Shown: piece by piece, positions 14,792 to 63,369 of the stretch
How the letters are laid out: each line of letters opens with the position of its first letter
Numbering within the stretch: the first letter of the stretch is position 1
Origin: an uncultured Chloroflexia bacterium
Lineage (GTDB): Bacteria > Chloroflexota > Limnocylindria > QHBO01
DNA: 64,000 nucleotides
NCBI GenBank assembly: GCA_963825525.1
Contig: CAWGTN010000002.1
Span: 1,504,001-1,568,000, forward strand
Direction: 5' to 3'
The notes under the pieces: model-generated
What the model saw: the letters and a program-made list of their open reading frames with translations, nothing else
Databases searched by the model: none
Told to the model about the DNA's origin: nothing
Position numbers and translations under genes: made by a program

Positions 14792-14806
14792 ATCGCTCTC
14801 TCTCGT

Positions 14807-15345: not shown

Positions 15346-15368
15346 GGTCTCGGCGAGCCGCTCGGGCG

Positions 15369-15503
15369 TCAGACGGTCAGTCGCTTGCGCCCCTTGGCCC
15401 GACGACGAGCCAGCACGCGGCGGCCGCCCTTCGTGGCCATGCGGGCCATGAAGCCGTGCTCGCGCTTCCGCGAGCGCTTCTTGGGCTGATACGTCCTCTT
15501 CAT
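15369..15503 (-). CDS. rpmH: 50S ribosomal protein L34 (absent from the ORF track)
   Basis: Translates [44 protein letters not shown]. Confidence 0.97.
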
Positions 15504-15618
15504 GAGCGCGTGCCGTTTCCTCGTTCAATTTCGCGATCCGGACCATCAAACACACGAAGGGCTGGCGTTTCGCCAGCCTGCACACGAACACGGATGGCCC
15601 GTCTCGCTCTGGATCGCG

Positions 15619-15647
15619 ATTCTACCGACGCACCCGATTCGGGTCAA
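15619..15647 (-). promoter_or_regulatory. sigma70-type promoter of the rpmH operon
   Basis: TTGACC-N17-TAGAAT on the minus strand. Confidence 0.7.
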
Positions 15648-15715
15648 ACTCCATTCCTCGTGATGGGCCTCCGGCGGGCCGCGGAAGCGGGATTTGACCA
15701 GGTTGGTCTCATCCA

Positions 15716-15745
15716 TTGCCCCGCCGATTCGGGCGCTGCTATAGT
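15716..15745 (+). promoter_or_regulatory. sigma70-type promoter of dnaA
   Basis: TTGCCC-N18-TATAGT with extended TG. Confidence 0.6.
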
Positions 15746-15854
15746 GGCGCGACCCCCGGCCCGGACCGCCCGAAATGACGTCCGATCTCGGCTCGGAGGC
15801 GGACTCATCAGCCCAGGCGGAACCCCCGCAGATCGGTTCGGAGCACATCGTTTG

Positions 15855-48095: not shown

Positions 48096-49559
48096 TCAGA
48101 ATAGGCTCGACGCGGACACCTCGATCAGCTCCAGGACCCCGCCGGGGAAGAGGCCAAGGATGACCACCCCCGCCACCGAGAGCGCCAGTGCCACGGTGCC
48201 GAAGGGTGAGGTGTCGATGGGGGCGGGGTCGTCCTCCGGATCCCGCATGTACATGTAGACGATGACGCGAAGGTAGTAGAACGCGGCCATCGCGGCATTC
48301 AGGACGAGGATCACGGCAAGCCAGGCCAGCCCCGCGTCGACCGCCGCCAGCAGCACGTACAGCTTGGCGAAGAACCCGACCGTGGGTGGGATGCCGGTGA
48401 GGCTGAGCATGAGCACGCCCATCGCAGCGGCACGGGCCGGCGACCGCGACCCGAGGCCGGCGAACGAGTTCAGGCCGCCGAACCGCCGCGTGTCTCGCTG
48501 CAGCATGCCCACCACCGCGAAGGCGGCGATGTTCATCACCGCGTAGCCGAGGACGTAGAACAGCACCGACTCGATGCCCTGCGCGGCGGTCTCCGGGTCG
48601 GAGGCGTTGGCGAAGGCGGCCAGGCCCACCATGATGTAGCCGGTGTGGGCGATGCTCGAGTACGCCAGCATCCGCTTCACGTTGACCTGGGTGAGCGCGA
48701 CGACGTTCCCTACCGTCATCGTGAGCACGGTGAGCACCAGGAAGACGCCGATCCAGTCGGCGCGCAGCGGTGCGAGCGCCTCCGCGAAGACACGGACCAG
48801 GAGGGCAAAGGCCCCGAGCTTCGGGCCCACCGACAGGAATCCGGTGATCGGCGTCGGAGCGCCCTGGTAGGCATCCGGCGTCCAGTAGTGGAACGGGACC
48901 GCCGCGATCTTGAACGTGCCGCCCACGATGAGGAATCCGATGGCGATGAGCAGTGCGCCGCTCATGCGTCCCTCGAGGCCCGATGCCGCGATCTCCGCGA
49001 TGTTGGTGGTGCCGGTGAGCCCGTAGAGCCAGCTGATGCCGAACAGCACGATGGCGCTCGCGAAGCTTCCGAGCAGGAAGTACTTCAGCCCGCCCTCGTT
49101 GCTGTAGCGGTCCGTCTTGTGGAGGCCGGTGAGCAGGTAGGACGGCATCGTCATCAACTCGAGGCCAAGGAACAGGGTGATCAGGTCGGAGCTCGACGCG
49201 AGCACGAACATACCGAGCAGCGCGCTGAGCAGGATCATGTGGAACTCGCCCAGCGGGATCCTGCGCACGAGGAGGTAGGAGGGCGCGAACAGCACCGAGA
49301 TGACGCCGATGACCACCGTCGCCGCCTTGAAGAAGACGGACAGGTCGTCCACCACGTAGAAGCCGGCGTAGACGGTCTCGTTGACATCCCACACCACGAA
49401 CAGCGCGGCACCGACGAGGACGAGACCGGCCACCGTGAGCGGAGTGAGGATCCACTTGTCGGCACGCGCCAGGAACAGGTCGACCGTGATCACCGTGAGG
49501 ATGAGGACCACGAGCAGCAGCTCCGGCATGAGCGTGACGAGGTCGTCGATGTACGTCAT
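48096..49559 (-). CDS. nuoN: NADH-quinone oxidoreductase subunit N
   Basis: EGGLKYFLLG, FKIAAVPFHYWTPDAYQGAP, KRMLAYSSIAH. Confidence 0.95.
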   Translation of the reverse strand: MTYIDDLVTLMPELLLVVLILTVITVDLFLARADKWILTPLTVAGLVLVGAALFVVWDVNETVYAGFYVVDDLSVFFKAATVVIGVISVLFAPSYLLVRRIPLGEFHMILLSALLGMFVLASSSDLITLFLGLELMTMPSYLLTGLHKTDRYSNEGGLKYFLLGSFASAIVLFGISWLYGLTGTTNIAEIAASGLEGRMSGALLIAIGFLIVGGTFKIAAVPFHYWTPDAYQGAPTPITGFLSVGPKLGAFALLVRVFAEALAPLRADWIGVFLVLTVLTMTVGNVVALTQVNVKRMLAYSSIAHTGYIMVGLAAFANASDPETAAQGIESVLFYVLGYAVMNIAAFAVVGMLQRDTRRFGGLNSFAGLGSRSPARAAAMGVLMLSLTGIPPTVGFFAKLYVLLAAVDAGLAWLAVILVLNAAMAAFYYLRVIVYMYMRDPEDDPAPIDTSPFGTVALALSVAGVVILGLFPGGVLELIEVSASSLF

Positions 49560-49569: not shown

Positions 49570-51096
49570 TCACCACAGCGGCCCGAATGCGGTCAGGCCG
49601 GCACCACGGACTGCATCGAGGATCCGGTCGACCGGTGCCGCGATCAACTCGAGGACCGGCCCCGGATACACCCCGAGGGCCACGACCAGGATGATGAGGG
49701 GCGCCAGCGCGATCCATTCATTGCGATTGATGTCGCGCAGCGCCGGCCACGACTGGCGCATCCAGTCGGACGGCACGGTGAAGAAGACGCGCTGGAACAT
49801 CCACAGCATGTACACCGCGCTGATGATGACGACGATCATGGTCGCCGCGGCGATGAATCCATTGGCACGGAACGCCCCGAGAATCACGAGGAACTCCCCG
49901 ACGAACCCGGAAAGCCCGGGGAGCCCGATGCTGGCGAAGGTGAAGAGGCCGAACATCGCGGCATAGCGCGGGATACGGGCGTTGAGCCCGCCCATGTGGG
50001 CGATGAGCCGGTCATGGGTCTGCTCGTACAGGATCCCGACCAGCATGAACAGCGCGCCGGTGGTGATGCCGTGGCTGATCATCTGGTAGATCGCACCCTG
50101 CAGGCCCTGCTCGTTGAAGACGAACGCGCCGAGCATCACGAAGCCCATGTGACTGACGCTCGAGTACGCGACCAGCTTCTTCAGATCGGGCTGGACCATG
50201 GCGACCAGGCCGCCGTAGATGATGGCGATGATGGCGAGGCCGATGATGATCGGCGCGAAGCTGACGGCCGCGTCGGGCAGGAGCGGCAGGCTGAAGCGCA
50301 GGAACCCGTAGCCGCCGAGCTTCAGCATGACGCCGGCCAGGATGATCGAGCCGGCGGTCGGGGCCTCGACGTGCGCGTCGGGCAGCCAGGTGTGGAACGG
50401 CCACATCGGCACCTTGATCGCGAACGCCAGGAAGAAGGCGACGAAGGCCAGTGCCTGGAGCGTATCGGCGTAGGCGAATCCGCGGAGCGCCTCGTAGCTG
50501 AAGGTGAAGGGCTGGCCGCTTGCCGCGTGGGCGATGGCCACGGCCAGGATGGCGACGAGCATGAGCAGCGAGCCGACCAGGGTGTAGAGCACGAACTTCA
50601 CGGTGGCGTAGATGCGCCGTGGCCCGCCCCACACCCCGATGATCACGTACATCGGGAAGAGGCTGATCTCCCAGAAGACGTAGAACAGGAACATGTCGAG
50701 CGCCATGAAGACCCCGAGCATCCCGACCATCAGGAGCAGGAGCGCGATGTAGTACTCCTTGACCCGCTTCTGGATCGGCTCCCAGGAGTAGAAGAGGGCG
50801 ACCACGCTGAGGACGGTGGTCAGCAGCACCAGGACGACCGAGAGACCGTCCACGCCCAGCGTGTAGCGCATGCCGAAGGCCTCGATCCAGGGCAGGTCCT
50901 CCCTGAACTGGAACTCGGATGCCGCCGAGGAGGCGTCGTAGCCGAGCAGCACGAGCGAGAAGGCGAGGCTGGCCAGCGCCGCCCCGAGCGCCACCCAGCG
51001 GATGGCTCGGTGATTGGAGCTCGGAATCAGGAGGAGCAGCAGGACGCCGACGACCGGCATGAAGATGATGAGTGAGAGCACCGGCAGGCCTGTCAT
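49570..51096 (-). CDS. nuoM: NADH-quinone oxidoreductase subunit M
   Basis: FYVFWE, IKVPMWPFHTWLPDAHVEAP, KKLVAYSSVSHMG. Confidence 0.95.
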   Translation of the reverse strand: MTGLPVLSLIIFMPVVGVLLLLLIPSSNHRAIRWVALGAALASLAFSLVLLGYDASSAASEFQFREDLPWIEAFGMRYTLGVDGLSVVLVLLTTVLSVVALFYSWEPIQKRVKEYYIALLLLMVGMLGVFMALDMFLFYVFWEISLFPMYVIIGVWGGPRRIYATVKFVLYTLVGSLLMLVAILAVAIAHAASGQPFTFSYEALRGFAYADTLQALAFVAFFLAFAIKVPMWPFHTWLPDAHVEAPTAGSIILAGVMLKLGGYGFLRFSLPLLPDAAVSFAPIIIGLAIIAIIYGGLVAMVQPDLKKLVAYSSVSHMGFVMLGAFVFNEQGLQGAIYQMISHGITTGALFMLVGILYEQTHDRLIAHMGGLNARIPRYAAMFGLFTFASIGLPGLSGFVGEFLVILGAFRANGFIAAATMIVVIISAVYMLWMFQRVFFTVPSDWMRQSWPALRDINRNEWIALAPLIILVVALGVYPGPVLELIAAPVDRILDAVRGAGLTAFGPLW

Positions 51097-53288
51097 CAGC
51101 GCACCACCACCGCCAGCGCAACGAGCACGAGCACCAGGCCGGCGGCGATCCCCAGGCCATAGTTCTCGACTCGACCGGTCTGGACCTTCCGGAGCCCGCC
51201 GCCCACGGTCCGGGCCAGCCAACCGGCTCCGTTCACCGCGCCGTCGATGATCTTCACGTCGAACCACCACAGGGCGTTGCTGAGCAGGACGCCGCCGCGC
51301 GCCCAGACCAGCCCGTAGAGATCATCCACGTAGTACTTGTTCACGCTGGCCCGATACATCCCGGGCCCGAGGCCGAACGGGATGCGCTCCACGAAGCGCA
51401 CGGCCGACTCTGGTCGCTGCACGTACCAGCGATAGGCGAGCAGCACGCCGCCCACCGCGACCGCCGCCCCGATCAGCAGCAGCAGACCGCCGAGGCCGAA
51501 GAGCTCGAAGCCATGGTGCTCGCCATCCGCGATGGAACCGGCGAGGACCCCGGCATGCGACTCCTCGGCGGCATGGAAGATCTCCTCGAGCCAGCCGTGG
51601 ATCACGCCGCCCTCCGGCGGGATGCCGAGAATGAGACCCGCCAGGATGGTGGGCACGGCCAGGATCGCCAGCGGCGCGACCATGGTCGGGGCGCTCTCGT
51701 GGATGTGGTCCCAGGCCGCCTTCGGCCCGCGCCACTCGCCCCAGAACGTCATGAAGATCATGCGGAACGTGTAGAAGGCGGTCATGAAGGCGACGATGGT
51801 GCCCACGAGATAGAAGACGAGGTACCCGCGGTTGAAGGCCTCGGCCAGGATCTCGTCCTTGCTGAAGAAGCCGGAAAAGATCGGGATGCCGGCCAGCGCC
51901 AGCGAGCCGATGACCATGGTGATATAGGTCCAGCGCATCTTCGCCCGCAGGTTGCCCATGTAGCGCATGTCCTGCTCGCCGCCCGCCCCGTGGATGACGG
52001 AGCCCGAGCCCATGAACAGCAGGCCCTTGAAGAAGCCGTGGCTGACGAGATGGAAGATGGCGGCCACCCATGCGCCGATGCCGAGCGCGAAGAACATGTA
52101 CGCCAGCTGGCTGACGGTCGAGTAGGCCAGCACCTTCTTGATGTCGTTCTGGGTCAGGGCGATCGCCGCGGCAAAGATGGCGGTGAAGACGCCGATGATG
52201 GCCACCGTCCACATCGCGACCGGCGCCTCGGCAAAGATCGGGTTGGCGCGGGCGACCAGGTAGACCCCGGCGTTGACCATGGTCGCCGCGTGGATCAGCG
52301 CGCTGACCGGGGTGGGGCCCTCCATCGCGTCCGGCAGCCAGACGTGGAGCGGGAACTGGGCGCTCTTGCCCACGGCGCCGGCGAAGAGGAGCAGCGCGAT
52401 GACCGTGATCGTGGTCTCGTCGAGTGTCCCGATCCGCTCGAAGACCTCGTGGAAGCTCAGCGTCCCCAGGTTGACCCAGATCATCATGATGCCGAGCCCG
52501 AACCCGAAGTCGCCGACCCGGTTGACGATGAACGCCTTCTTGGCGGCCCCGGCGGCGGAGGGCTTCTTGTACCAGAAGCCGATCAGCGCGTAGCTGCACA
52601 GGCCGACGGCCTCCCAGCCGACGTAGAGCATCAGGAAGTTGTCGCCAAGGATCAGCAGCAGCATGCTGAACATGAAGAGGTTGAGGTAGGCGAAGAACCG
52701 CCAGAAGCCGCGGTCGCCGTCCATGTAGCCGATGGAATAGATGTGGACCAGGAATCCGACCGTGCTGACGACGAGCAGGAGCATGGCCGTCAGTGAGTCC
52801 ACCAGGAACGCGATCTCGATGGTGAAGTCGCCCGAGGCGATCCACTCGTAGATCGAGACCTCGTACTCGTTGCCACCGAACACGACGCTGGCGAACACGA
52901 TCATCGAGAAGACCCACATCAGGCCCACGACCGCGGTCGGCACGACCCACGATCGGTAGCGCGGCCGCTCGGCTCCCGGGGCCACGTGGCCGGCCTGGCC
53001 CAGGCCGTCGCTCATGTCGGACGGGATCACGCCATCGGCGCCCTCGGCGTTCGCAAGGTCATCGGCATGGCCGGCATGCGGGCTGGTGGCGCGCTGCTCT
53101 TCCTCGCTCGGGACCGGACGGAACGCAGAATCGTCGACCGCGTGGTCGTCGTGCGTCCCGTGCTCGGCATCGGCGTGTGCGTCGCCATGGCCGTGGCTCG
53201 GAACGCGGTCCAGCCTGGCTCCGGCGAGCACGGCGAACAGGAACCCGACCAGGGGCAGCGCGGGGATGAGGGCGATCAACAGCTCCAC
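51096..53288 (-). CDS. nuoL: NADH-quinone oxidoreductase subunit L with a His/acid-rich insertion
   Basis: GWEAVG, GKSAQFPLHVWLPDAMEGPTPVSALIHAATMV, KKVLAYSTVSQL. Confidence 0.95.
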   Translation of the reverse strand: MELLIALIPALPLVGFLFAVLAGARLDRVPSHGHGDAHADAEHGTHDDHAVDDSAFRPVPSEEEQRATSPHAGHADDLANAEGADGVIPSDMSDGLGQAGHVAPGAERPRYRSWVVPTAVVGLMWVFSMIVFASVVFGGNEYEVSIYEWIASGDFTIEIAFLVDSLTAMLLLVVSTVGFLVHIYSIGYMDGDRGFWRFFAYLNLFMFSMLLLILGDNFLMLYVGWEAVGLCSYALIGFWYKKPSAAGAAKKAFIVNRVGDFGFGLGIMMIWVNLGTLSFHEVFERIGTLDETTITVIALLLFAGAVGKSAQFPLHVWLPDAMEGPTPVSALIHAATMVNAGVYLVARANPIFAEAPVAMWTVAIIGVFTAIFAAAIALTQNDIKKVLAYSTVSQLAYMFFALGIGAWVAAIFHLVSHGFFKGLLFMGSGSVIHGAGGEQDMRYMGNLRAKMRWTYITMVIGSLALAGIPIFSGFFSKDEILAEAFNRGYLVFYLVGTIVAFMTAFYTFRMIFMTFWGEWRGPKAAWDHIHESAPTMVAPLAILAVPTILAGLILGIPPEGGVIHGWLEEIFHAAEESHAGVLAGSIADGEHHGFELFGLGGLLLLIGAAVAVGGVLLAYRWYVQRPESAVRFVERIPFGLGPGMYRASVNKYYVDDLYGLVWARGGVLLSNALWWFDVKIIDGAVNGAGWLARTVGGGLRKVQTGRVENYGLGIAAGLVLVLVALAVVVR

Positions 53289-53298: not shown

Positions 53299-53604
53299 CT
53301 ACTCCTTCAGATCGGAGTACTGATCGACCTCGGCCGTCTGACGCGTCCGGATGATCGCAATCACCAACGCCAGGCCCACGGTCACCTCGGCTGCGGCGAC
53401 GGCCATGATCATGAGCGCGAAGACGGCGCCCGCATTCGAATCGGGTGGGAGGAAGGCGTTGAAGGCGACCAGGCTCAGGTTCACGGCGTTGAACATCAGC
53501 TCGATGCTGATGAGCATGAGGATCGCGTTGCGGCGGGCCATGAAGCCGAACGTCCCGATGCCGAACAGCATCACGGAGACGATGAGGTAGCCGGTGAGTC
53601 CCAT
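53299..53604 (-). CDS. nuoK: NADH-quinone oxidoreductase subunit K
   Basis: RRNAILMLISIELM, AVAAAEVTVGLA. Confidence 0.95.
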   Translation of the reverse strand: MGLTGYLIVSVMLFGIGTFGFMARRNAILMLISIELMFNAVNLSLVAFNAFLPPDSNAGAVFALMIMAVAAAEVTVGLALVIAIIRTRQTAEVDQYSDLKE

Positions 53605-53606
53605 GC

Positions 53607-54116
53607 TCAGTTGGCCCGCTCGTCTTCTTCGGGACGTCGCGCCAGGTAGATGGCGCCGATGATGGCCACCAGGATCAGGAGGCTGATGATCTCGAACGGC
53701 AGCGCAAAGGTGGTGAACACCGCGTTGGCGATGGCGTCAACGGCCGCGGCGACCGGCTGCGGCAGCACGGACCAATCCGTCTGCACGACCGCCCATCCCA
53801 CGACGCCAATGAGGCCGAGCGCCACGACGGCCGCGATCGGAACCTGGCGGTGGAACGGTGCCGGCAGGTTCGCATCGCCAGCCTGGGTCAGCATGATGGC
53901 AAACAGGATGAGCACGCTGATCGCGCCCAGGTAGATGAGGACCTGGGCTGCCGCCACGATGGGGGCGCCGAGCAGCGCATACATCCCGGCCAGTGAGCCG
54001 AAGCAGATCATCATTGCCACGGCCGAATGGATGATGTTGCGCAGCGTCACCACGGCAATGCCGGCTCCCACAACGCCGATGGCGAGCAGGAAGAACAGGA
54101 CGCTGGAGATATCCAG
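53607..54116 (-). CDS. nuoJ: NADH-quinone oxidoreductase subunit J (probable CTG start)
   Basis: QVLIYLGAISVLILFAIML, LPFEIISL; first TM lies upstream of the ORF-track start; AGGAG 9 nt before CTG; TAGAAT at 54178-54183. Confidence 0.92.
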   Translation of the reverse strand: MDISSVLFFLLAIGVVGAGIAVVTLRNIIHSAVAMMICFGSLAGMYALLGAPIVAAAQVLIYLGAISVLILFAIMLTQAGDANLPAPFHRQVPIAAVVALGLIGVVGWAVVQTDWSVLPQPVAAAVDAIANAVFTTFALPFEIISLLILVAIIGAIYLARRPEEDERAN

Positions 54117-54272
54117 GGTCGAATGCTCCTGAGAGAGGTTGAGCGCTCAAAACGGTCCCGCTCGGGGACCGCGCTCGATTCTAGCGCAGGCATTGCGTGG
54201 TCGCGCGCTGACCCCGTACCCTGCGCGGAACCGCCGACCCTGGCGGAGGAGTGGATGGAGGACGAGGTCACG

Positions 54273-54641
54273 ATGACGAGACGGACCGTTCCGGTACTCG
54301 CGGCGCTCGCGATCGCCCTGGCCGCATGCGGCGGCGGCGGCGGCGGAGGTGGCGCCAACGATGGCGCGGACAATCCGACCAAGGCCACGGTCGAGGCCGG
54401 TGCCGAGCGCGTTGCCTACCTGCTCGCCCCCGGACGGTACCGGATGACGATCAACGAGGACTGCGACGACTACACCATCGCGATCACCCAGGACGGCGGC
54501 GACTTCACGTACACCCTCGACAATTCGCCGATCCGTTTCGTCTTCGTGAACGACGTGCCGGCCGGCAGCTTCTTCATCGAGCAGACCAACGAGGCGTGCA
54601 CTGAGTGGAGCGTTGACCTCAGCAGAGTGAACGCCCCCTGA
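54273..54641 (+). CDS. hypothetical lipoprotein in opposite orientation inside the nuo cluster
   Basis: Lipobox LAAC, poly-Gly linker, beta-rich domain with two Cys; SD GAGG. Confidence 0.75.
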   Translation: MTRRTVPVLAALAIALAACGGGGGGGGANDGADNPTKATVEAGAERVAYLLAPGRYRMTINEDCDDYTIAITQDGGDFTYTLDNSPIRFVFVNDVPAGSFFIEQTNEACTEWSVDLSRVNAP

Positions 54642-54695
54642 TCCGACTCGGTGGTCACGCGGATGGCCCCTGAGCCGAAGATGGAACGAATTGGT

Positions 54696-54726
54696 GCGTC
54701 CGGCACGCCACACGAGTGCCGGACGC
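54696..54726. terminator. 11-bp hairpin between convergent genes
   Basis: GCGTCCGGCAC-N9-GTGCCGGACGC. Confidence 0.55.
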
Positions 54727-54739
54727 TTCCCACGTCGGT

Positions 54740-57136
54740 CTAGCGGGTGGGGCGCTCCCGGTCGGACATCTCGAGAATGTCGAGCATCGGCAGGTCGCGC
54801 TGGTACTCGCTGAACTCGAACTCGGGGCCGCATCGCAGCGCGTCGTACGGACAGGCATCGGCGCAGATGCCACAGAAGATGCAGCGGCTGATATCGAGCT
54901 GGTAGGTCTCGAGGATGCGCGGGCGCGGCATGAGCGCGCCGACCGGGCAGGTCTCCGCGCATCGGCCACAGGAGACGCACGGCGTCTCGTTGAGTGACAC
55001 GAAGTCGGCGGTGGTGACCAGCGAGTCGAAGCCCTTGCCGATGAAGTCGTAGCAGCCGGCGCCCACGATCTCCTTGCAGACCTGGGCGCAGCGGCCGCAG
55101 TCGATGCAGCGGCTGTAGTCGCGCAGGATGAACGAATGCGTCTCGTCCCGGCCGTAGCCGTGGTTCACGCCGACGTACGGGTTGTCCTGGATCGAGCGCT
55201 CGTCGATCGCCATGTTCAGCGTCGTCTCGTACTCGATGGCCGCCTCGCGCAGGTCGCAGTGCCCGATCGCCTCGCAGGTGCACTGAAGGCATCGGCCCGC
55301 CTCGGCCATGGCCTGGTCGCCGGTGTAGCCGAACTCGTACTCGTTGAAGTTCGTGCGGCGCTCGTCGGCCTCCTGCTTGCCCATGATGGCGCGTGGTTCC
55401 TTCACGTCGTCGGTGAAGGGCACGATGGTCAGGAAGTTCGGCTGCGGCTCGGTGACGATGCGGCGCACCTGCGGGTCGTCGAGGTCATGGCCGCGCAGCC
55501 AGTAGTCCATGGCGTAGCTGGCGCGGCGTCCCTCGCCGATCGCCTCGACCACGGTGGCGGCGCCGGTCCGAACGTCGCCGGAGGCGAAGATCTTCGGGAC
55601 ATTGGTGCGGAAGATGTGCTCCTCGGCGACCAACGTGCCGCGGCGCGAGACCTCGAGGCCGGCCCGAATCTCCTCCGGCTCGGACTCGATCCATGACAGC
55701 TCGGGTCCCTGGCCGATGGCGCCGAGGACGGTGTCGCACTCGACGATGAACTCGGTGCCGGGCATCGGCTCGGGCCGACGGCGGCCCTGCGCATCGGGCT
55801 CGCCCAGCTTCATGCGCTGGAACTCGACGCCGTTCACCTTGTCATCGGCGCCGGTCACGATCCGCGTCGGTGCGGCCTGGAAGATGACGCGCGCGCCCTC
55901 CTCGATCGCCTCGTGCACCTCGTCGGCGGCGGGCATGTCCTTGAGGTCGCGGCGATAGACGAGCGTGACCTCCGCCGCGCCCTGCCGGACGCTGGTCCGG
56001 GTGCAGTCGATGGCGGTGAAGCCGCCGCCGATGACCACGACCCTCGCATTCTTCAGGCGCGGGACGGGGACGCCGCGGGTCGAGTTGTAGAGGTTCTCGA
56101 GGGCGTTGACCGTCCCATCGGCCTCTTCGCCCGGGATGCCGAGCTCGTTCGGCTTGTAGCAGCCGATGCCGACGTAGATGGCGTCGTAGTCGTCGATGAT
56201 GTCGCCCAGGTGGAAGTCACGACCGAGGCGCATGTTCGGCTTGAAGGTCGCGCCCAGCTCCCACACGTGGTTGAGCTCGCGGTCCATCCAGCCCTTGGGC
56301 AGCCGGTACTGGGGGATGCCGTAGCGCAGCATGCCGCCCTGCTCCGGGTCGGCCTCGTAGACGTCGCACTGATGGCCGCGCAGCTGGAGGTAATAGGCCG
56401 CGGTCATGCCGGCCGGTCCGGCGCCGATGATCGCCACCTTGCGACCGGTGGGCGGATCCTTCGGCCACGGAATCGGGGCAGGGGCGTCCACTTCGAGCAC
56501 CCGGTCGGCGCAGTAGCGATGCGAGTCACGGATGGCGATGGCCGTGTCGACTTCCTCACGGCGGCAGTGCGTCTCGCACGGAGCGGGACACACGCGGCCG
56601 AGGATGGCGGGGAAGGGAAGGGAGCGCTTGAGGATGCGCGTCGCCTCTTCCCAGTTGCCCAGGGTGTTCTGCTTCAGGTAGCCCGGGATATCGACGCGGG
56701 TGGGGCACTTGAACTGGCACGGGGGAAGGCAGTAGGCGTCGTGGTCGCTGAAGATGAGCTCGAGGACCATGCGACGGTTCTCGATGACCCGCTCGGAGTG
56801 GGTGGTGATGACCATCCCCTCCTCGATGGTCGTTCCGCAGCTGATGGGTGTGTCGTCGCGACCCTCGACCTCGACCGCGCAGATGCGGCAGGCGCCGTAC
56901 GGCGCGAGCTTGGGCTCGTAGCACAGGGTCGGGACGTCGATCCCCAGCACGCGACAGGCCTGGAGGATGGTCTGTCCCTCCTCGACCTGGAGCTCCTTGC
57001 CGTTGATGGTGACGCCGATCTCGCGCGTCCCGGGCACCATCGGCCAGATCGGGGTGTAATCGGCACTCGGGCCGTCACCCGCGCTGCCGTTGCCTGCCCC
57101 GTGGCCGTTCGTTCCGTTCGTCGTTCCGAAGCCCAT
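54740..57136 (-). CDS. NuoG N-terminal FeS module + GltD-like FAD/NADPH oxidoreductase + C-terminal half of NuoI
   Basis: PTLC..GACRIC..SC (2Fe-2S); PCQFKCP, GRVCPAPCETHC, GAGPAG, GGGFTA, YRR, GD (GltD); CIDCGRCAQVC and CVSCGRCAETCP; then YQLDISRCIFCGICADACP..EFEFSEY. Confidence 0.88.
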   Translation of the reverse strand: MGFGTTNGTNGHGAGNGSAGDGPSADYTPIWPMVPGTREIGVTINGKELQVEEGQTILQACRVLGIDVPTLCYEPKLAPYGACRICAVEVEGRDDTPISCGTTIEEGMVITTHSERVIENRRMVLELIFSDHDAYCLPPCQFKCPTRVDIPGYLKQNTLGNWEEATRILKRSLPFPAILGRVCPAPCETHCRREEVDTAIAIRDSHRYCADRVLEVDAPAPIPWPKDPPTGRKVAIIGAGPAGMTAAYYLQLRGHQCDVYEADPEQGGMLRYGIPQYRLPKGWMDRELNHVWELGATFKPNMRLGRDFHLGDIIDDYDAIYVGIGCYKPNELGIPGEEADGTVNALENLYNSTRGVPVPRLKNARVVVIGGGFTAIDCTRTSVRQGAAEVTLVYRRDLKDMPAADEVHEAIEEGARVIFQAAPTRIVTGADDKVNGVEFQRMKLGEPDAQGRRRPEPMPGTEFIVECDTVLGAIGQGPELSWIESEPEEIRAGLEVSRRGTLVAEEHIFRTNVPKIFASGDVRTGAATVVEAIGEGRRASYAMDYWLRGHDLDDPQVRRIVTEPQPNFLTIVPFTDDVKEPRAIMGKQEADERRTNFNEYEFGYTGDQAMAEAGRCLQCTCEAIGHCDLREAAIEYETTLNMAIDERSIQDNPYVGVNHGYGRDETHSFILRDYSRCIDCGRCAQVCKEIVGAGCYDFIGKGFDSLVTTADFVSLNETPCVSCGRCAETCPVGALMPRPRILETYQLDISRCIFCGICADACPYDALRCGPEFEFSEYQRDLPMLDILEMSDRERPTR

Positions 57137-57156
57137 CGTGTCCTATCGTAGCGAGG

Positions 57157-58521
57157 CTAAGCGCCCGCCGCCGGATCGACTCCGGCAAGAGGCTCGAGAA
57201 GAGGGTGGACGCCGTCGGTGCGGCAGGCGCCGGCCAGGCATTCGCCGCGTTCCGCGTGCGCCCGGTACTCATCGGTGAATCGATCGAGGGTGGTGAGGAT
57301 CGGTCCCGATGCGAGCCGCTCCAGCTTGCAGAGCGCCGTGTCGCTCACCTTGCGCGACAGCTCGCGCAGGAGGTTGAAGTCGTTCGGCCGCGGCGTGGCT
57401 GCGAGGATGCGATCCATGGTCTCGACCAGGCGCTTCGTGCCGATCCGGCACGGGACCGCCTTGCCGCATGCCTCCCGCGCGTTGAAGTCGATGAAGAATC
57501 GGGCGGTGTCGACCATGCAGGTGGCGCTGTCGGTGACGAGCACCGATCCGGAGCCGATGATGGCGCCCGCTTCCTCGAGCGACTCGTAGTCGAACGGCAT
57601 GTTGAGCGAGCCGGCGTCGATGGCCCCACCACCCGGACCGCCGACAAACAGCGCCTTGGTGGTGCCGGTCCCGCCGCCCGCCATTCCGAGCAGGTCGATG
57701 AGCGGTGTTCCCAGCGGCACCTCGACGAGGCCCGGGGTGCCGACGCGGCCCATGATCGTGACGAGCTTGGTGCCGTGGCTGCCTTCGCTCCCAACCGACG
57801 CGAACGCATCCGGCGAGTGGGCCATGATCCATGCCACATGCGCCAGCGTCTCGCCGTTCTGGACGACGGTCGGGGCGCCGTTCAGCCCCTTCTGGGCCGG
57901 GTACGGTGGCCTGATGAGCGGCATGCCGCGGTCGCCGGAGAGGGCGTTGATGAGCGCCGTCTCCTCGCCCGCCACGTAGGCGCCGGAGCCCTCCCACACG
58001 CTGAGCTGGACGCTGGTGTCCGTGCCCAGCACGAGGTAGCCACCCAGGTGCGCATCGGTCGCCTCCGCGATGGCGGCTTGAAGGCGCTCGATGGCGACGG
58101 TCCAGTCACGCCGCACGGCGATGATCGCCTCGCTGGCGCCGGCCGCATACGCCGCAATGACGAGTCCCTCGACGATCAGATGTGGGTTGCCCTCGGCCAG
58201 GGCGCGGTCGCCGAGTGCGCTGGGATCTGCCGCCATGAGGTTGGCGACCACCACCCTGCGATCTCCCGGGGCATCACGCGCGACCCGCCACTTCGCCGCG
58301 GTCGGGAACCCCGATCCGCCGCGACCGCGAAGTCCCGCCGCCTCGATGTCACGAATGACCTCCTCGGGCGCCAGCTTGGTGATGGCGCGCTCGAGTCCGG
58401 CGTACCCGCCGTGCTCGCGGTAGCTCGCGAGGCTGCCCGGGTCAACACGGCCGATGTCGGTCAGGAGACGCGGCTCTCCCTCGGTGAGGATCCGGATCTG
58501 TGGCGAGAGGGTGCCGGTCAT
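57157..58521 (-). CDS. nuoF: NuoF-like subunit with degenerate NADH/FMN and N3 motifs
   Basis: GLRGRGGSGFPT..KW, GAYVAGEETAL, PPYPA; canonical NADExEPG reads NLMAADPS; CGKCxPC reads CGKAVPC. Confidence 0.85.
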   Translation of the reverse strand: MTGTLSPQIRILTEGEPRLLTDIGRVDPGSLASYREHGGYAGLERAITKLAPEEVIRDIEAAGLRGRGGSGFPTAAKWRVARDAPGDRRVVVANLMAADPSALGDRALAEGNPHLIVEGLVIAAYAAGASEAIIAVRRDWTVAIERLQAAIAEATDAHLGGYLVLGTDTSVQLSVWEGSGAYVAGEETALINALSGDRGMPLIRPPYPAQKGLNGAPTVVQNGETLAHVAWIMAHSPDAFASVGSEGSHGTKLVTIMGRVGTPGLVEVPLGTPLIDLLGMAGGGTGTTKALFVGGPGGGAIDAGSLNMPFDYESLEEAGAIIGSGSVLVTDSATCMVDTARFFIDFNAREACGKAVPCRIGTKRLVETMDRILAATPRPNDFNLLRELSRKVSDTALCKLERLASGPILTTLDRFTDEYRAHAERGECLAGACRTDGVHPLLEPLAGVDPAAGA

Positions 58522-59354
58522 GCTCGGTCACGACCCCCGGCCGGCGCGGCCGCCCGGCGCTCACCGACGATGTGCAGGGCCTTCTCTTCGTCGAGCGGGC
58601 CGTACACGAGGGTATCGATCCGCATGGCCGGGCTCAGCGCCCCGGCGCCGACGTCGGGTCGTGTCTCGAGCGAGAACCGGCCGTCTGCCGTCGTCTCGCC
58701 GGGCCGGATGCCGAGCTCCCGTTCGATCGCCGAGAGCAGGCGATCGCCGCCGGCGAACCGACAGGAGGCGCAGTCGCACACCGTCACCAGGTGGCCACTG
58801 GCCGGCAGCAGGCGGAATCCACCGAGTCCGGCGGCACCGAAGACCTGGGCCCAATGGATCGTCATTCGGTCGCTGATCCGGCGCAGTGCCCGCTCCGGGA
58901 GATAGCCATATCGCTCCTCGATGGCGCGGAAGATGGCAACCAGCGCCTCGGGGCGTCCGCCGAACCCGTCAATGACCTGGTCCACGAACGGCGTGTCGAT
59001 CGCCTCGTCCCAGCGCGCCGCGTTTCGCATCGGTTTGGCCTCCAGACCGGCACGTCGATAGGCGTTGGGATCCTTGCGCTCGTCATAGATCTCCGGCATG
59101 CCGTAGCGGATCCGGTTGCCGGTCGAGTCGAACCCGCTCATGTCGATGGCCTCGACCGGACAGACCTGGGCGCACTGGAAGCACACCTCGCACTTGTGCT
59201 CCCCGAACGGGTCGTAGATCAGGTCGAGACGGCCGCGCCAGCGATCGGGGATCTCGGGGCGCTGCTCCGGATACTGCCGCGTCACCTTCGGCGCGAAGAA
59301 GTTCCGCAGGGTCGTCGCCATGCCCTTCGCGATGCCGGAGCCGGGAAATGCCAT
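58518..59354 (-). CDS. fusion: N-terminal half of NuoI + degenerate NuoE domain
   Basis: GIAKGMATTLRNFF..VTRQYPE..RWRG..CEVCFQCAQVCP (single motif); then IEERYGYLP, TVCDCASC, GETTADGRFSLE, DVGAGALSP. Confidence 0.88.
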   Translation of the reverse strand: MAFPGSGIAKGMATTLRNFFAPKVTRQYPEQRPEIPDRWRGRLDLIYDPFGEHKCEVCFQCAQVCPVEAIDMSGFDSTGNRIRYGMPEIYDERKDPNAYRRAGLEAKPMRNAARWDEAIDTPFVDQVIDGFGGRPEALVAIFRAIEERYGYLPERALRRISDRMTIHWAQVFGAAGLGGFRLLPASGHLVTVCDCASCRFAGGDRLLSAIERELGIRPGETTADGRFSLETRPDVGAGALSPAMRIDTLVYGPLDEEKALHIVGERRAAAPAGGRDRA

Positions 59355-59366
59355 GGGTTCGCCCTC

Positions 59367-60377
59367 CTACAGGTCGAAGACGACCACGGCGATGGCCGTG
59401 ATGAACAGGTTGACGAGGGCGAGAGGCAACAGGACCTTCCACGCCATGCCCATGAGCTGATCCACGCGCATGCGGGGCAGGGTGGCGCGCAGCCAGACCG
59501 CGATGGACACGAAGATGTAGGTCTTGAGGAAGAACCAGAAGATGCCATAGAGGGTGCCGCCGAATCCATCGAGCTGTGCCGGGAACGGCCAGGGCGCCAG
59601 CCAGCCGCCGAAGAAGAGGCTGACCAGGATGCCGCTCATGATGAACAGCGCGACGTACTCGGCGAAGAAGAAGAACCCGAAGCGCATCCCCGAGTACTCG
59701 GTGAAGGGGCCGGCCACCAGCTCCGAGTCTGCCTCGACCATATCGAACGGGGTCCGGTTCACCTCCGCCAATGAGCTGATGTAGAAGATGCCGAGGCCGA
59801 CCGGTTGCCACACCAGGAGCCAGCCATGGTCCCGCTGCCAGGCGATGAGCTCGCTGAAGTTCAGCGTGCCGGCCAGGACCACCGCCCCCACGATCGAGAG
59901 GGTGAGCGGAATCTCGTAGCTCACCATCTGGGCCGCCGCGCGCAGCCCGCCGAGGAGCGAGTACTTGTTGTAGCTCGCCCAGCCGGCCACGAGGAGCCCC
60001 ACAACCGAGAGGCCGAGCACCGCGAAGAAGTAGACGATGCCGATGTTGAAGTCGGCGGCGACGGCACCCGGCGCGAACGGGATCACGAGCATGCTCATCG
60101 CCGCGGCCATGTAGACCATCCACGGCGCGAGGGTGAACGTCCCGCGGTCCGCCTGGTCGGGCACCGTGTCCTCCTTGGCGAGGACCTTGAACCCGTGGAT
60201 CGTGCTCTGGAAGATGCCGCGCGGACCGATGCGGTTCGGTCCGAAGCGCAGGTTCATCTGGGCGATGATCTTCATCTCCATCTGGATGATGACGAACGCC
60301 GTCGGAACGGTGAGCAGCAGCAGCAGCGTCGTCGCCAGGATGAATCGGCCGAGGCCGAGAAGCAGCTCGAAGTCCAT
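59367..60377 (-). CDS. nuoH: NADH-quinone oxidoreductase subunit H
   Basis: GPNRIGP, KYSLLGGLRAAAQMVSYE, AEVNRTPFD, EYSG. Confidence 0.96.
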   Translation of the reverse strand: MDFELLLGLGRFILATTLLLLLTVPTAFVIIQMEMKIIAQMNLRFGPNRIGPRGIFQSTIHGFKVLAKEDTVPDQADRGTFTLAPWMVYMAAAMSMLVIPFAPGAVAADFNIGIVYFFAVLGLSVVGLLVAGWASYNKYSLLGGLRAAAQMVSYEIPLTLSIVGAVVLAGTLNFSELIAWQRDHGWLLVWQPVGLGIFYISSLAEVNRTPFDMVEADSELVAGPFTEYSGMRFGFFFFAEYVALFIMSGILVSLFFGGWLAPWPFPAQLDGFGGTLYGIFWFFLKTYIFVSIAVWLRATLPRMRVDQLMGMAWKVLLPLALVNLFITAIAVVVFDL

Positions 60378-60380: not shown

Positions 60381-61664
60381 CTACTTGTCCACGCCGCCCA
60401 TGACCGGGTCGAGGCTGGCCATCACCGCCATGGTGTCGGCGACCAGCCGGCCCGGCATGAGCTTCGGCAGTGCCTGGAGGCTGATGAAGCTGGGATCGCG
60501 CATCCGGAAGCGGTACGGGTTCGGGCCTCCGTCGCTGATGGCATAGACGCTGTACAGGCCGCGTGGCGACTCGACCGCGCCGTACGCGCGGCCCGGCCGT
60601 GGACGGATGATGCCGGGGACCTGGGCCTGCACCGCCCCGTGGGGCATCTTGTCGATGATCTGGTCGATGAGGTGGATGCTCTGCTTGATCTCGGCGATGC
60701 GCTGCAGGTAGCGGGAGTAGGAATCTCCGCCCTCCTGGGTGATGACGTCGAACTCGAGCTCGTTGTAGATCGAGTAGGGCTTCGCCTTGCGGACATCGAA
60801 GGGGACGCCGGATGCTCGCAGGTTCGGACCGGTGACGCCGAGACTGATGGCCTCCTGGCCGGTGAGCGTGCCCATGTTGATCGTCCGTGCTCGGAAGATC
60901 TCGTTCTCGGTGATCATGTGCTCGTTCATCTCGATGTTCTTCATGACGTTGCCGCGCCACGTGCCGAGACGGCTGAGGAACTCGTCGTTGGTGTCGAAGT
61001 TCACGCCACCCACGCGGAAGAAGTTGAAGAGCATGCGCTGGCCGCTGATGGCCGACAGCATGTCGACGATCTCGTCGCGATTGATGAACGCGTAAAGGAT
61101 CGGGGTGATGCCGCCCATGTCGAGCGCCAGGAAGCCCATCATCAGCCCGTGGCTGAAGATGCGATTCAGCTCCACGACCAGTGCGCGGATGTACTCGGCG
61201 CGCGGCGGTGCCTTGATGCCGTACAGCTTCTCGAACGCGATGGCCGGTGCATGCTCGTTGTGCATGGTCGACAGGTAGTCCATGGGGTCCACGTAGGTGA
61301 GAACGGTGGTGTACGTCGCGTTCTCGCACAGCTTCTCGATGCCGCGATGGAGGTAGCCAAGGACGGGGTCGATGTCGACGATGATCTCGCCGCGAACCTT
61401 GACCACCAGCCGCATCACGCCGTGGGTCGACGGGTGCTGCGGCCCCATGTTCACGAGCATCTCCCCCTCGTCCAGGGTGTAGACCTCGCGCTCCCGTTCC
61501 GTCTGGGGTGGTCGATCCGGGATCCCGACCTGGTCGAAGCCCGCGTACTCGCCCGCACTCGTTCGGACCGGCGTCAGGCCGGCGACCGCGCGGAGGCGTT
61601 CCTCTTCGAGCCGATCCAGCTCGATCGGGTCGGGGATTCGCGTCTCCGGATCCACGCTCGTCAT
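60381..61664 (-). CDS. nuoD: NADH-quinone oxidoreductase subunit D
   Basis: NMGPQHPSTHGVMR, GYLHRGIEK, ELNRI, ESPRG. Confidence 0.96.
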   Translation of the reverse strand: MTSVDPETRIPDPIELDRLEEERLRAVAGLTPVRTSAGEYAGFDQVGIPDRPPQTEREREVYTLDEGEMLVNMGPQHPSTHGVMRLVVKVRGEIIVDIDPVLGYLHRGIEKLCENATYTTVLTYVDPMDYLSTMHNEHAPAIAFEKLYGIKAPPRAEYIRALVVELNRIFSHGLMMGFLALDMGGITPILYAFINRDEIVDMLSAISGQRMLFNFFRVGGVNFDTNDEFLSRLGTWRGNVMKNIEMNEHMITENEIFRARTINMGTLTGQEAISLGVTGPNLRASGVPFDVRKAKPYSIYNELEFDVITQEGGDSYSRYLQRIAEIKQSIHLIDQIIDKMPHGAVQAQVPGIIRPRPGRAYGAVESPRGLYSVYAISDGGPNPYRFRMRDPSFISLQALPKLMPGRLVADTMAVMASLDPVMGGVDK

Positions 61665-62254
61665 CGCGCGCCGCTCCCGTTGGAATCCGTTGGCGCTTCC
61701 GTCGCGCCCGGCGTGTCGCGGTAGCGGGAGAGGTCCCAGGTCGCGGGCCGCTCGAGCGGGTTCACGCCAGCGGCGGGAGAGTCGGCCGCGTCATCCGGCA
61801 GAAGAAAGTCACGACGCTGCGGAAAGGAGCGGTAGTCGGGGCTCATGTAGATGCGCCGAAGGTCGCGATTGCCGTCGAAGATGATGCCCATCATGTCGTA
61901 CATCTCGCGCTCGTGGAACATCGCCCCCTCCCACAGGTCGGTGATGGTGGGGATGCGCGGATCATCGCGGTCCACGTCGGCACGGATGCGGAGCCAGCCG
62001 GGATGCTTCCAGCTGAACAGGTGGTACACCACCTCGAAGCGCTCCCCGAGTCCGTAGTCGACCGCCGCGGCGTCGGCAAGCATGAAGAAGTCGAGATCGT
62101 CATCGTCGCGCAGGGTCTTGAGGACGTCATGGGCACGGGGCGCACTGACCCGGTACTCGACGGTGTCCTCGTCGGTCCACAGGTCGCGAAGGTCGTCACC
62201 GAGACGCTCGGCCAGCGCCCGGACGAGCGCGCCGGCCGCGGCGGACGTGGTCAG
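61661..62254 (-). CDS. nuoC: NADH-quinone oxidoreductase subunit C (probable CTG start)
   Basis: [29 protein letters not shown]; CTG overlaps the nuoB TGA, with AAGGAG upstream. Confidence 0.92.
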
Positions 62255-62910
62255 CGGACGTCTCCTTCCCAGTTGGTTCGCTGCGGGCCTCGATCCACGT
62301 ACGTGCTCCACTGGCCTCGGCGCTGCTTGACCAGCTCGTGCAGCTTCATCATTCCGTAGATCAGGCCCTCGGGGCGCGGTGGGCAGCCCGGCACGTACAC
62401 GTCGACCGGCATGACCCGATCCACGCCCTGGACCACGCTGTACGAACGCTTGAAACGGCCACCGGATGTCGTGCAGGTGCCCATGGCCACGCACCACTTG
62501 GGCTCGGGCATCTGCTCCCACAGCCGGACGAGCGGCCCGGCCATCTTCGTGGTCAGCGTGCCGGCCACGATCAACACGTCCGCCTGCCGTGGGCTGGCGC
62601 GGAACGGGAACATCCCGAATCGGTCGATGTCGTTCACGCTCGTGGCCGTGCTCATCATCTCGATGGCGCAGCAGCTGAGCCCCGACAGCAACGGCCAGAG
62701 CGAGTTGGCTCGAATGAGGTCGAGGATGTAGTCGGCCTTGGTCGGGATGACCTCGAGCAGGCCGTGGAATCCGCCCTGCGGATGCTCCTCCATCCCGAAC
62801 TCGCGCAGCAGGTCGCTGTCCGCGGCCTGGTCGGGAATGACGATCGGTCCGTTGCCGGGGGTCGACATCAGTTCGGTCGAGCTCCCGGTTGTTGGTCGGT
62901 CTACTGCCAT
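62251..62910 (-). CDS. nuoB: NADH-quinone oxidoreductase subunit B
   Basis: [32 protein letters not shown]. Confidence 0.96.
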
Positions 62911-63260
62911 CGCAGGTCCCCCTTCTTCCACGCGTACAGCTCACCGAACATGAGGATGGCCAGGAAGATGCCGATCAGGACGATCCCCTGGAACTCGAGC
63001 GACCGCACGGTGATCGCCCACAGGTATACGAAGATGATCTCCACGTCGAAGGCCACGAACAGCAGGGCGTATAGGTAAAAGGCAAGTCCGAATCGGCTCC
63101 AGGTGTCGCCGATCGTGTCCACCCCGGACTCGTACGGCAGGCCCTTCTGGGGACGCCGGCGCCGATGGGTGATCAGCCAGCTGAACAGGATCGTGCCGAA
63201 GACGAAGGTCGTCGCGGCAAACGCGAATCCGATGACGTAGAGCAGTCCGGTGTGATCCAT
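62901..63260 (-). CDS. nuoA: NADH-quinone oxidoreductase subunit A
   Basis: [29 protein letters not shown]. Confidence 0.95.
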
Positions 63261-63369
63261 CTCCACTCCGGTTGCACGCGGTGCAGTTGCGTGTCGGGCA
63301 GCGGCCCGACGCTGAGGTTCGTCGTTGGTGGAGCGGTGCGGCGCTGCGTGCACGGCCCGCTCGTTTCAC

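Follow-up and report, generated by a model that had tools for sequence, protein, structure and literature searches.

Canonical NuoI (Nqo9 or TYKY in other nomenclatures) is one polypeptide of ~150-180 amino acids (aa), with an N-terminal helix, a YPE motif, two CxxCxxCxxxCP motifs and a tail, and its gene lies between nuoH and nuoJ. The stretch of DNA analyzed here, 64,000 nucleotides (nt) of contig CAWGTN010000002.1 from an uncultured Limnocylindria bacterium (Chloroflexota), encodes all of these features at the same place in a nuo operon, but on two different proteins. We refer to the whole stretch as the window and give all coordinates as window positions; the three genes found between nuoH and nuoJ are designated P1, P2 and P3. 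NuoI is cut in two in this operon, with a three-gene module in the cut that is fused to both halves. The closest described systems to the module are StnABC and Nfn-BfuABC, which have the same three-gene order, an E-like subunit with four-helix and thioredoxin-like parts, an F-like core, and a NuoG-type subunit in which a GltD/NfnB domain for flavin adenine dinucleotide (FAD) and NADPH follows the 2Fe-2S domain. Unlike the window system, they are soluble and without a Nuo partner, and StnA does not begin with half a NuoI. At its C-terminus, StnC has an FdhF-like domain (residues 683-1172 in the section cited of PMC10482914) where P3 has half a NuoI. Moreover, P2 is without both of the end domains of StnB, and P1 is without two of the 2Fe-2S cysteines.

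Complex I relatives that have 11 subunits and a different input are also known, among them Fpo with FpoF and the cyanobacterial NDH-1. In mbx-like operons a GltD-type flavoprotein replaces NuoI, as set out in the cited section of Degli Esposti 2015 (PMC4758237). Like the window, these systems offer an ABCDHIJKLMN-type core, an electron entry other than NuoEFG, and a GltD-type NAD(P)H site near the NuoI position; unlike it, their NuoI (FpoI, NdhI) is either whole or replaced outright, and none has been described as split with the halves fused to the input module. Another close system is Nuo-Bfu, predicted in the main text of Schut et al. 2022 (PMC9304861) to have 14 subunits, A to N, with BfuABC replacing NuoEFG, and assigned there to Deferribacteres, Proteobacteria, Planctomycetes and Nitrospirae. 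As in the window, the genes for its Bfu-type module lie amid a nuo cluster, and it is proposed to feed menaquinone reduction and proton pumping. The sections cited give Nuo-Bfu no GltD/NADPH domain and mention no split or fused NuoI, and 'fused', 'fusion', 'split' and 'Actinobacteria' each occur 0 times in the main text. Alternative input modules of complex I are thus already known, and the split, doubly fused NuoI is the part not found described: our literature search, whose scope ended short of the supplementary Nuo-Bfu and Por-Bfu tables and figures of Schut 2022 that may bear on novelty, returned no description of a split NuoI. This agrees with an earlier reading of the sequence alone (hereafter the first-pass annotation), which knew of no described complex I with this architecture.

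The window contains one nuo gene cluster, on the minus strand from 63353 down to 48096, with the gene order A-B-C-D-H-[I'-E]-F-[G-GltD-I'']-J-K-L-M-N established from open reading frames and Pfam matches. The ten other core subunits (NuoA, B, C, D, H, J, K, L, M and N) each have a Pfam match and are all encoded in this one tight operon, and no ordinary nuoI is found within the window's nuo cluster. P1 (58518-59354, minus strand, 278 aa) starts 12 nt past the end of nuoH; the start of P2 (57157-58521, minus strand, 454 aa) overlaps the end of P1 by 4 nt; and P3 (54740-57136, minus strand, 798 aa) comes next, all at the coordinates given in the first-pass annotation. We aligned the proteins to the NuoI profile NCBIfam TIGR01971, which has 121 positions and a family cut-off of 113.05 bits. 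Positions 1-72 correspond to P1 residues 11-83 and positions 71-112 to P3 residues 740-781; when the whole genome was scanned, the P1 piece scored 56.8 bits (E 3e-15, positions 1-73) and the P3 piece 47.6 bits (E 2.3e-12, positions 71-112). Both pieces fall short of the family cut-off, and neither P1 nor P3 has both NuoI motifs in one polypeptide; jointly they cover the NuoI profile (1-73 plus 71-112 of 121) and flank the insert between nuoH and nuoJ. The assignment is the same when each piece is taken alone: the first 85 aa of P1 have NuoI as their best match (58.7 and 58 bits), and the seven best matches of the last 63 aa of P3 are all NuoI families (51.1 bits, against 33.9 bits for the best non-NuoI match). 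Identity to the intact NuoI that the same genome encodes elsewhere is 30% for the N-terminal piece in P1 and 40% for the C-terminal piece in P3, and in this alignment both pieces match the same short loop between the motifs, a breakpoint at which the two pieces seem to overlap slightly.

The NuoI half of P1 (residues 1-85; 59100..59354, minus strand) comprises the amphipathic helix, the YPE region and the first CxxCxxCxxxCP motif, at residues 55-66 (nt 59157-59192), which is the only such motif in P1. P3 has three. The first two are inside a HydA/NuoG-type two-cluster ferredoxin domain (Pfam Fer4_Nqo3, 670-735), and the third, at 752-763, is of the NuoI type and lies in the C-terminal NuoI half (residues 736-798; 54740..54931, minus strand), followed by a NuoI-type tail. 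Because motifs 1 and 2 jointly match the two-cluster Fer4_Nqo3 domain, motif 3 is left without a partner inside P3. The two NuoI motifs are on separate proteins, and ~4.2 kb of DNA lies between them. The split domain has eight cysteines, C55, C58, C61 and C65 of P1 and C752, C755, C758 and C762 of P3, and all are invariant in 17 sequences from two phyla, as are P66 of P1 and P763 of P3. Both fusion junctions are inside single open frames, and contigs of an independent DNA run from another study (X2) bridge both, with record 30 spanning 55779-59500 and record 25 spanning 54603-55705. The central observations of the first-pass annotation, that P1 begins as NuoI with the first motif only and then runs into a NuoE domain, that the missing half is the C-terminus of P3 with its third, unpaired motif, and that both junctions are open and in frame, are thereby borne out by profiles and contigs, and the halves do align to complementary parts of NuoI.

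The remainder of P3 (residues 1-735; 54932..57136, minus strand) has the layout of StnC and NfnA: a HydA/NuoG-type 2Fe-2S domain, an inserted GltD/NfnB-type FAD/NADPH domain and the two-cluster ferredoxin domain, assigned from PDB, Pfam and NCBIfam matches. Pfam places Fer2_4 and the GltD-type Fer4_20/Pyr_redox_2 in it, and its PDB matches are 9bov_A (E 6.6e-168), 8oh5_C (1.9e-153) and 9n5u_A (3.3e-139). The GltD/NfnB-type domain carries two 4Fe-4S sites, and a C-x2-C-x-C-x5-C site is also present in P3. Residues 39-763 align to residues 3-700 of the A subunits 8oh5_C (1172 aa) and 9bov_A (1178 aa); the StnC alignment stops at 700, the FdhF-like C-terminal domain is absent, and P3 ends at 798 with the NuoI half. 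The operon does not show the canonical 14-subunit Nuo order, in which nuoEFG stand between nuoD and nuoH and NuoG carries a molybdopterin-like domain; neither Pfam nor NCBIfam finds such a domain in P3. The 2Fe-2S cysteines, the GltD cluster cysteines, the FAD and NADPH glycine motifs and the triplet Y394-R395-R396, which we take to be an NADPH motif, are invariant in 17 P3 sequences. Between families, P3 is 56-60% identical and P1 and P2 ~36-45%, and the GltD/FAD/NADPH part is the best conserved of all. In the P3 proteins of two related families, f3 and f4 (loci L024-L035), an additional 60-90 aa follow the NuoI half, with a conserved start and often Gly/Asn/His-rich repeats at the end; this extension is lacking in the window's own family.

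P1 and P2 are reduced versions of their relatives. Beyond a conserved linker (P1 residues 86-118; 59001..59099, minus strand), defined by alignment, P1 residues 119-278 (58518..59000, minus strand) form a NuoE/BfuC-like domain, in which residues 125-264 match Pfam 2Fe-2S_thioredx (NuoE type, E 2.9e-25). AlphaFold2 models it with a predicted local distance difference test (pLDDT) score of 80-97, and the best Foldseek matches are HydC, StnA and NfnC. Alignment to 9bov_C (NfnC) shows that the first C-x4-C pair is kept and the second 2Fe-2S cysteine pair lost, leaving two of the four cysteines of the BfuC C1 site. The helical part is retained in P1, as it is in four of the 12 relatives' proteins aligned in which the whole thioredoxin-like domain is absent. 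P2, a NuoF/BfuB-like core, matches Pfam Complex1_51K, SLBB and NADH_4Fe-4S, with 9bov_B and 8oh5_B as its best PDB matches; the Stn/Nfn matches have E values of 9.3e-126 to 1.3e-119. Its alignment covers residues ~104-526 of the 584-aa StnB/NfnB chains only, and the N-terminal 2Fe-2S and C-terminal 2x[4Fe-4S] domains are therefore missing; consistent with this, Pfam finds no ferredoxin domain in P2 that could correspond to the C-terminal 2x[4Fe-4S] (B3, B4) of BfuB. In the Bfu family, BfuB has a core for flavin mononucleotide (FMN) and NADH besides B3 and B4, usually an N-terminal thioredoxin-like domain too, and beside the FMN a four-cysteine 4Fe-4S cluster, B1 (N3 type). In P2 the N3/B1 site has three of four cysteines, with Ala in place of the second, and another ligand is possible. 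The glycine loop and the GEET motif are kept in this genus.

For all three proteins, the closest solved relatives are chains of 9bov/9bp5 (Nfn-ABC of Caldicellulosiruptor saccharolyticus), 8oh5 (StnABC of Sporomusa ovata) and 9n5u (NfnABC of Thermococcus sibiricus). By homology, then, the insert is a Stn/Nfn-type module of the Bfu family and not canonical nuoEFG. The proposal of the first-pass annotation that an electron-input operon landed inside nuoI stands as regards the gene trio, which is in insertion order, and needs correction as regards the module, which had been read as the EFG type. We infer that a stnABC-like operon landed in frame in the inter-motif loop of nuoI: the order [NuoI-N::BfuC-like]-[BfuB-like]-[BfuA(Nfn type)::NuoI-C] is exactly what such an insertion would give.

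The split is conserved in relatives. In public data, clusters of the P1 fusion (80-90% identity, coverage of 95% or higher) number more than 120 and come from metagenome-assembled genomes of Candidatus Limnocylindria or Chloroflexi. Within 201 genomes of the class, P1 matches occur in 64/66 genomes of the window's family (f1), 59/60 of f3 and 7/7 of f4, with the best matches listed beginning at query residue 1-3; family f2 has weak P1 matches only, in 57/66 genomes. Among 401 genomes of the phylum, matches that contain the NuoI half were seen only in this class. The order A-B-(C)-D-H-P1-P2-P3-J-K-L-M-N was recovered by tblastn in 11 of the 12 class loci examined, one of which (L032) has several frame breaks. 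The twelfth, L031 in genome G064 of family f2 (3102-9218), has only NuoB-NuoD-[NuoI-N::E-like]-F-like-[G-GltD::NuoI-C]; no nuoA, C, H or J-N was found within 17 kb, the neighbours are unrelated, and an intact NuoI is present elsewhere in the genome. This cluster may be a membrane-arm-less relative of the complex. A remnant of a NiFe hydrogenase was considered and ruled out, as the end motifs of the NuoD-like protein are of the NuoD type and not the NiFe type. In two genomes of the window's family (G189:C2:463169-463976 and G192:C5:120918-121720), P1 is in two pieces that meet at approximately residue 78-80, which is the border of the NuoI half, in one case with an in-frame TGA. These breaks may be frameshift errors or a real secondary fission.

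The same architecture occurs in a second phylum. A scan of 1.84 billion representatives returned 24 proteins at E<=1e-30, several of them distant fusions with intact 2Fe-2S cysteines. Through one of these, P0147, we found 44 loci at 63-92% identity (42 of the 44 starting at residue 1), which are titled as Thermoleophilia, Actinomycetes or Actinomycetota metagenome-assembled genomes, except for one 3.8-kb contig titled Deltaproteobacteria. The same operon is present in 6/6 Actinomycetota (Thermoleophilia) loci mapped. Its module is the fuller one: the Thermoleophilia BfuB, at 634 aa, retains both end domains (thioredoxin-like 2Fe-2S at the N-terminus, 2x[4Fe-4S] at the C-terminus), its flavin motifs are canonical and its N3 cysteines complete, and the BfuC has all four 2Fe-2S cysteines. 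P0144 and P0274 represent a third, rare NuoI-N::NuoE lineage, of which two clusters were found and which is Lys-rich and has all four 2Fe-2S cysteines.

The connector also appears without complex I. Eight Actinomycetota loci (L081 at 6980-15766, L092, L099, L100, L102, L107, L111 and L114) have PorG-, PorD- and PorA-like genes followed by a fusion of a NuoI-like N motif to BfuC, a full BfuB, and a 937-1093-aa protein that consists of BfuA (GltD type), a NuoI-like C motif and a PorB-like part; the gene layout was read from L081, and the other seven were assigned by protein lengths and C-terminal tails. The G-GltD proteins of these loci match NuoI profile positions 69-119 at 41-46 bits. As in the window, the BfuC-like protein starts with a NuoI-like first motif and the G-GltD protein carries the second, and as in the Por-Bfu predicted by Schut et al. 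2022 the Bfu module is joined to another oxidoreductase. Unlike the window, the partner is a pyruvate:ferredoxin oxidoreductase with its beta subunit fused after the second motif, there are no Nuo genes, and the NuoI-specific N-terminal region is degenerate. Gene content thus suggests that in the Por-linked loci the same split ferredoxin ties a pyruvate:ferredoxin oxidoreductase to an Nfn-type Bfu module. When 25 P3 homologues are placed in a tree, rooted at the midpoint only, the 17 Nuo-linked sequences of both phyla fall together, set apart from the eight Por-linked ones by a branch with 100/100 support, and each phylum forms its own group.

The operon is under purifying selection. The ratio of nonsynonymous to synonymous substitution rates (dN/dS), calculated for the window against seven loci of the same genus with three others and one unpublished locus set aside, is 0.03-0.15 in the NuoI half of P1, 0.06-0.22 in the linker, 0.06-0.12 in the helical part of the E-like domain, 0.15-0.36 in its thioredoxin-like part, and 0.09-0.19 in P2. 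Two RNA-library runs, X15 and X17, contained 0.09 and 0.06 of the sampled words, with contigs that are mostly 90-95% alike.

Because an intact nuoI elsewhere in the genome could serve this complex, as the first-pass annotation had allowed, we searched for one. It exists (G000:C2:11608-11994, 144.5 bits), inside a second, canonical nuoA-N operon with nuoEFG (locus L011, G000:C2:3000-18100) at the start of a contig. In this second operon nuoD is found in four frame pieces and nuoF in two, and the window operon is free of such breaks; the breaks may stem from decay of an acquired operon or from a mistake in local assembly. An intact NuoI, defined as a match at E<=1e-20 and over the family cut-off, was found in only 3/201 class genomes (196 of the 201 being at least 90% complete), which are the source genome and two of family f2, and in 0/15 other genomes of the same genus. 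At the more permissive threshold of E<=1e-8, all five class genomes scanned had the halves only, plus one 48-bit partial match in G023. In Thermoleophilia, 2/5 genomes are without an intact NuoI, and one of them, G558, has a single nuoH, in the split operon. Thus, the split form is the only NuoI found in most carriers, and the copy that the earlier reading warned of does exist, though in a frameshifted operon and alongside a split that is conserved.

The remaining genes of the cluster, all on the minus strand, are those of an 11-subunit-type core. Upstream of P1 are nuoA (62901..63353, start codon approximate; Pfam Oxidored_q4, E 1.4e-29), nuoB (62251..62931; Oxidored_q6, E 2.6e-28), in which the N2-type cysteines including the CC pair can be read in the sequence, nuoC (61661..62359, start approximate; Complex1_30kDa, E 1.2e-36), nuoD (60381..61664; Complex1_49kDa, E 2e-83), which by alignment is of the NuoD type and is without the NiFe cysteine motifs, and nuoH (59367..60377; NADHdh, E 1e-109). 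Downstream of P3 are nuoJ (53607..54071; Oxidored_q3, E 5.8e-34), nuoK (53299..53604; Oxidored_q2, E 1.8e-25), nuoL (51096..53288; Proton_antipo_N and Proton_antipo_M), nuoM (49570..51270, start approximate; Proton_antipo_M, E 1.2e-75) and nuoN (48096..49559; Proton_antipo_M, E 1.3e-72). In the window's family, NuoL has an N-terminal extension of ~100 aa (residues ~1-106) with a His/Asp-rich stretch, and its homologues in f3, f4 and Thermoleophilia align only from approximately residue 107. The gap between P3 and nuoJ is 668 nt (54072-54739), compared with ~200-350 nt in families f3 and f4, and holds an open reading frame in the reverse orientation (54027..54641, plus strand) that is outside the complex. 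Its guanine-plus-cytosine content by codon position (0.66/0.51/0.80) is as in real genes here, and its product has a lipoprotein-type signal peptide after an internal Met; no Pfam family matches it, and tblastn found it in 0/12 related loci.

We consider it probable, on the evidence of gene content and homology, that the operon encodes a working, proton-pumping complex I of the 11-subunit type, in which a two-piece NuoI and a reduced Stn/Nfn-type trimer together make a non-bifurcating NAD(P)H:quinone oxidoreductase. In canonical complex I, NuoI holds clusters N6a and N6b and links NuoG to NuoB. Each cluster of a 2x[4Fe-4S] ferredoxin fold is held by three cysteines from one motif and one from the other. 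With the cysteines shared in this way, clusters N6a and N6b could form only when P1 and P3 meet, and the first half, on P1, and the second, on P3, would fold into one N6a/N6b domain. Tethered twice in this way, the input module would be welded to the quinone module, and the electron wire could be assembled only when the input module is present. By homology with StnABC and NfnABC, NADPH would reduce the FAD in the GltD domain of P3, from which electrons would run along the 4Fe-4S clusters of P3, enter the N6a/N6b domain made of both polypeptides and reach quinone by way of N2 in NuoB, with protons pumped by the membrane arm. NADH at P2 is a possible second input.

To look at the pairing of the halves, P1 residues 1-112 and P3 residues 660-798 were modelled together with four 4Fe-4S clusters. 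The complex had a median score of 0.37, versus 0.00 for the best of three controls, a result classed as 'weak support'; contact agreement among the runs was at least 77%, and the partners had a pLDDT of at least 60. In calibration, the mark was reached by 58/80 solved complexes and 2/110 mismatched pairs, with seven of the 80 solved complexes and both mismatches at scores of 0.60 or below; with our own alignments and riding ligands in use, this calibration is approximate, and likeness to solved NuoI may be enough for halves of a known fold to pass. The first-pass claim that N6a/N6b must be built from two polypeptides thus fits the anatomy and the eight invariant cysteines and is weakly favored by the model. 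An AlphaFold2 model of P3 alone, built from 17 aligned sequences, was tried and set aside as uninformative on the pairing of motif 3, with a pLDDT of 25-37 across residues 564-798. The ferredoxin domain, known to fold in relatives, falls within these residues, so the model is silent on whether motif 3 pairs inside P3.

Several points weigh against the reading of the operon as a working NAD(P)H:quinone oxidoreductase with a reconstituted NuoI. The reconstitution, the donors and the direction of electron flow are predictions, and the assignment of NADPH as donor draws on homology and on the presumed meaning of the YRR triplet. In the modelling, the complex model weakly supports the pairing, the P3 model says nothing of it, and P1 residues 22-113 have an AlphaFold2 pLDDT below 50-53, which may reflect a half-domain or, equally, a shallow alignment. 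NADH input is doubtful given the departures at the P2 flavin site: the NADEGDPG-type acidic motif near the flavin is altered in 12/12 class sequences, the two f4 loci have a degenerate glycine loop and one f3 locus (L025) a changed one, and the missing N3 cysteine is A, T or S in 9/12 class sequences aligned. The contigs from the RNA libraries fall on P3 and the start of P1 and hardly on P2; such contigs are no proof of transcription, just as the stretches they leave uncovered prove nothing. The open reading frame between P3 and nuoJ may divide the operon into two transcripts in this genus, with the membrane genes possibly separate. Lastly, PntB is present in this genome (601 bits), which means that the complex is not needed for exchange between NADH and NADPH, and the idea that it substitutes for a missing membrane transhydrogenase was ruled out for the same reason.

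The alternative that survives best is that the GltD/FAD site alone is catalytic, with P2 and the E-like domain of P1 as structural remnants, which would make the enzyme a strict NADPH:quinone oxidoreductase. The better conservation of P3 across families, the class-wide changes in the P2 flavin motifs and the loss of the E-like 2Fe-2S site all point this way, whereas the purifying selection on P2 and the retention of its glycine loop and GEET motif in the genus speak against it. We regard this version as unlikely in its strict form; since a scaffold role would also explain the selection on P2, it is a sub-case of the preferred reading, with no contradiction between them.

Another alternative is a confurcating or bifurcating complex I in the Nuo-Bfu sense, in which reduced ferredoxin and NAD(P)H would together feed quinone through a Bfu flavin site, or the reverse. 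It has in its favor that the nearest solved relatives of the module all bifurcate, that the Thermoleophilia form keeps a full BfuB and a four-cysteine BfuC, and that a confurcating Nuo-Bfu has been proposed in the main text of PMC9304861. In the cited sections of PMC12018979 and PMC10482914, bifurcation in the Bfu family is stated to require FMN with the B1 and C1 clusters, and ferredoxin to be reduced via C1, B3 and B4. In the window lineage these parts, which carry the low-potential branch, are damaged or missing: it has two of the four C1 cysteines, three of the four B1 cysteines and no B3/B4 domain. Without the C1 2Fe-2S site and the B3/B4 domain, bifurcation is unlikely there; judged by sequence, the Bfu core appears incomplete in the window enzyme and complete in that of Thermoleophilia. 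For the window, we think this mechanism improbable.

Reverse operation, in which the proton-motive force would drive electrons from quinol to NADP+ and supply NADPH for biosynthesis, has slightly poorer prospects still. Complex I is reversible, and the relatives of the module are described as reversible transhydrogenases in the section cited of PMC10482914. The sequence is neutral as to direction; forward respiration is the simpler main role, because in most of the class no other complex I was found (intact NuoI in 3/201), and PntB is available for NADPH supply.

The view that the split has no function or does not exist as such (misassembly, pseudogene, unpaired halves, or another ferredoxin serving as NuoI) is hardly credible and largely refuted: it could call on the intact nuoI elsewhere, on the position of motif 3 just 20 residues past motif 2, which by sequence makes internal pairing possible, and on the weak support from modelling, but both junctions are spanned by contigs from an independent source of DNA, two phyla keep the architecture under purifying selection, intact NuoI is missing in 198/201 class genomes with the source genome's own copy in a frameshifted operon, and motifs 1 and 2 of P3 match Fer4_Nqo3 and leave motif 3 unpaired.

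With the preferred reading of a working complex I with a two-piece NuoI as the starting point, a wider scenario can be put forward, tentatively and as one that may well not hold. An 11-subunit ancestor of complex I might have acquired an NADH/NADPH-oxidising input head a second, independent time, through a Bfu module that entered nuoI. The split N6a/N6b domain might since have acted as a portable connector, joining such modules to pyruvate:ferredoxin oxidoreductase in Actinomycetota and, in Limnocylindria and Thermoleophilia, to complex I. The full Bfu core of Thermoleophilia would then provide a proton-pumping coupling of ferredoxin, NAD(H), NADP(H) and quinone, and the Limnocylindria would have reduced it to a sole, NADPH-linked complex I.

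These genes are easily overlooked. Public records label them 'NADH-quinone oxidoreductase subunit E' or 'NAD(P)H-dependent oxidoreductase subunit E', and the best NCBIfam match of P3 is a glutamate-synthase small-subunit model; with such names and models, pathway tools will score complex I as lacking NuoI in these lineages. NuoI is among the most conserved core subunits, and an N6a/N6b domain made of two polypeptides would tie assembly of the wire to the presence of the input module. If true, it would mean that the site used by the textbook enzyme, in operon and protein alike, is not the only one at which an input head can join. The Thermoleophilia form is a concrete candidate for the predicted membrane-bound Bfu enzymes, and the conserved GltD-type NADPH site on the quinone module suggests that the Limnocylindria, an abundant class of soil and freshwater, may respire NADPH directly through a proton pump.

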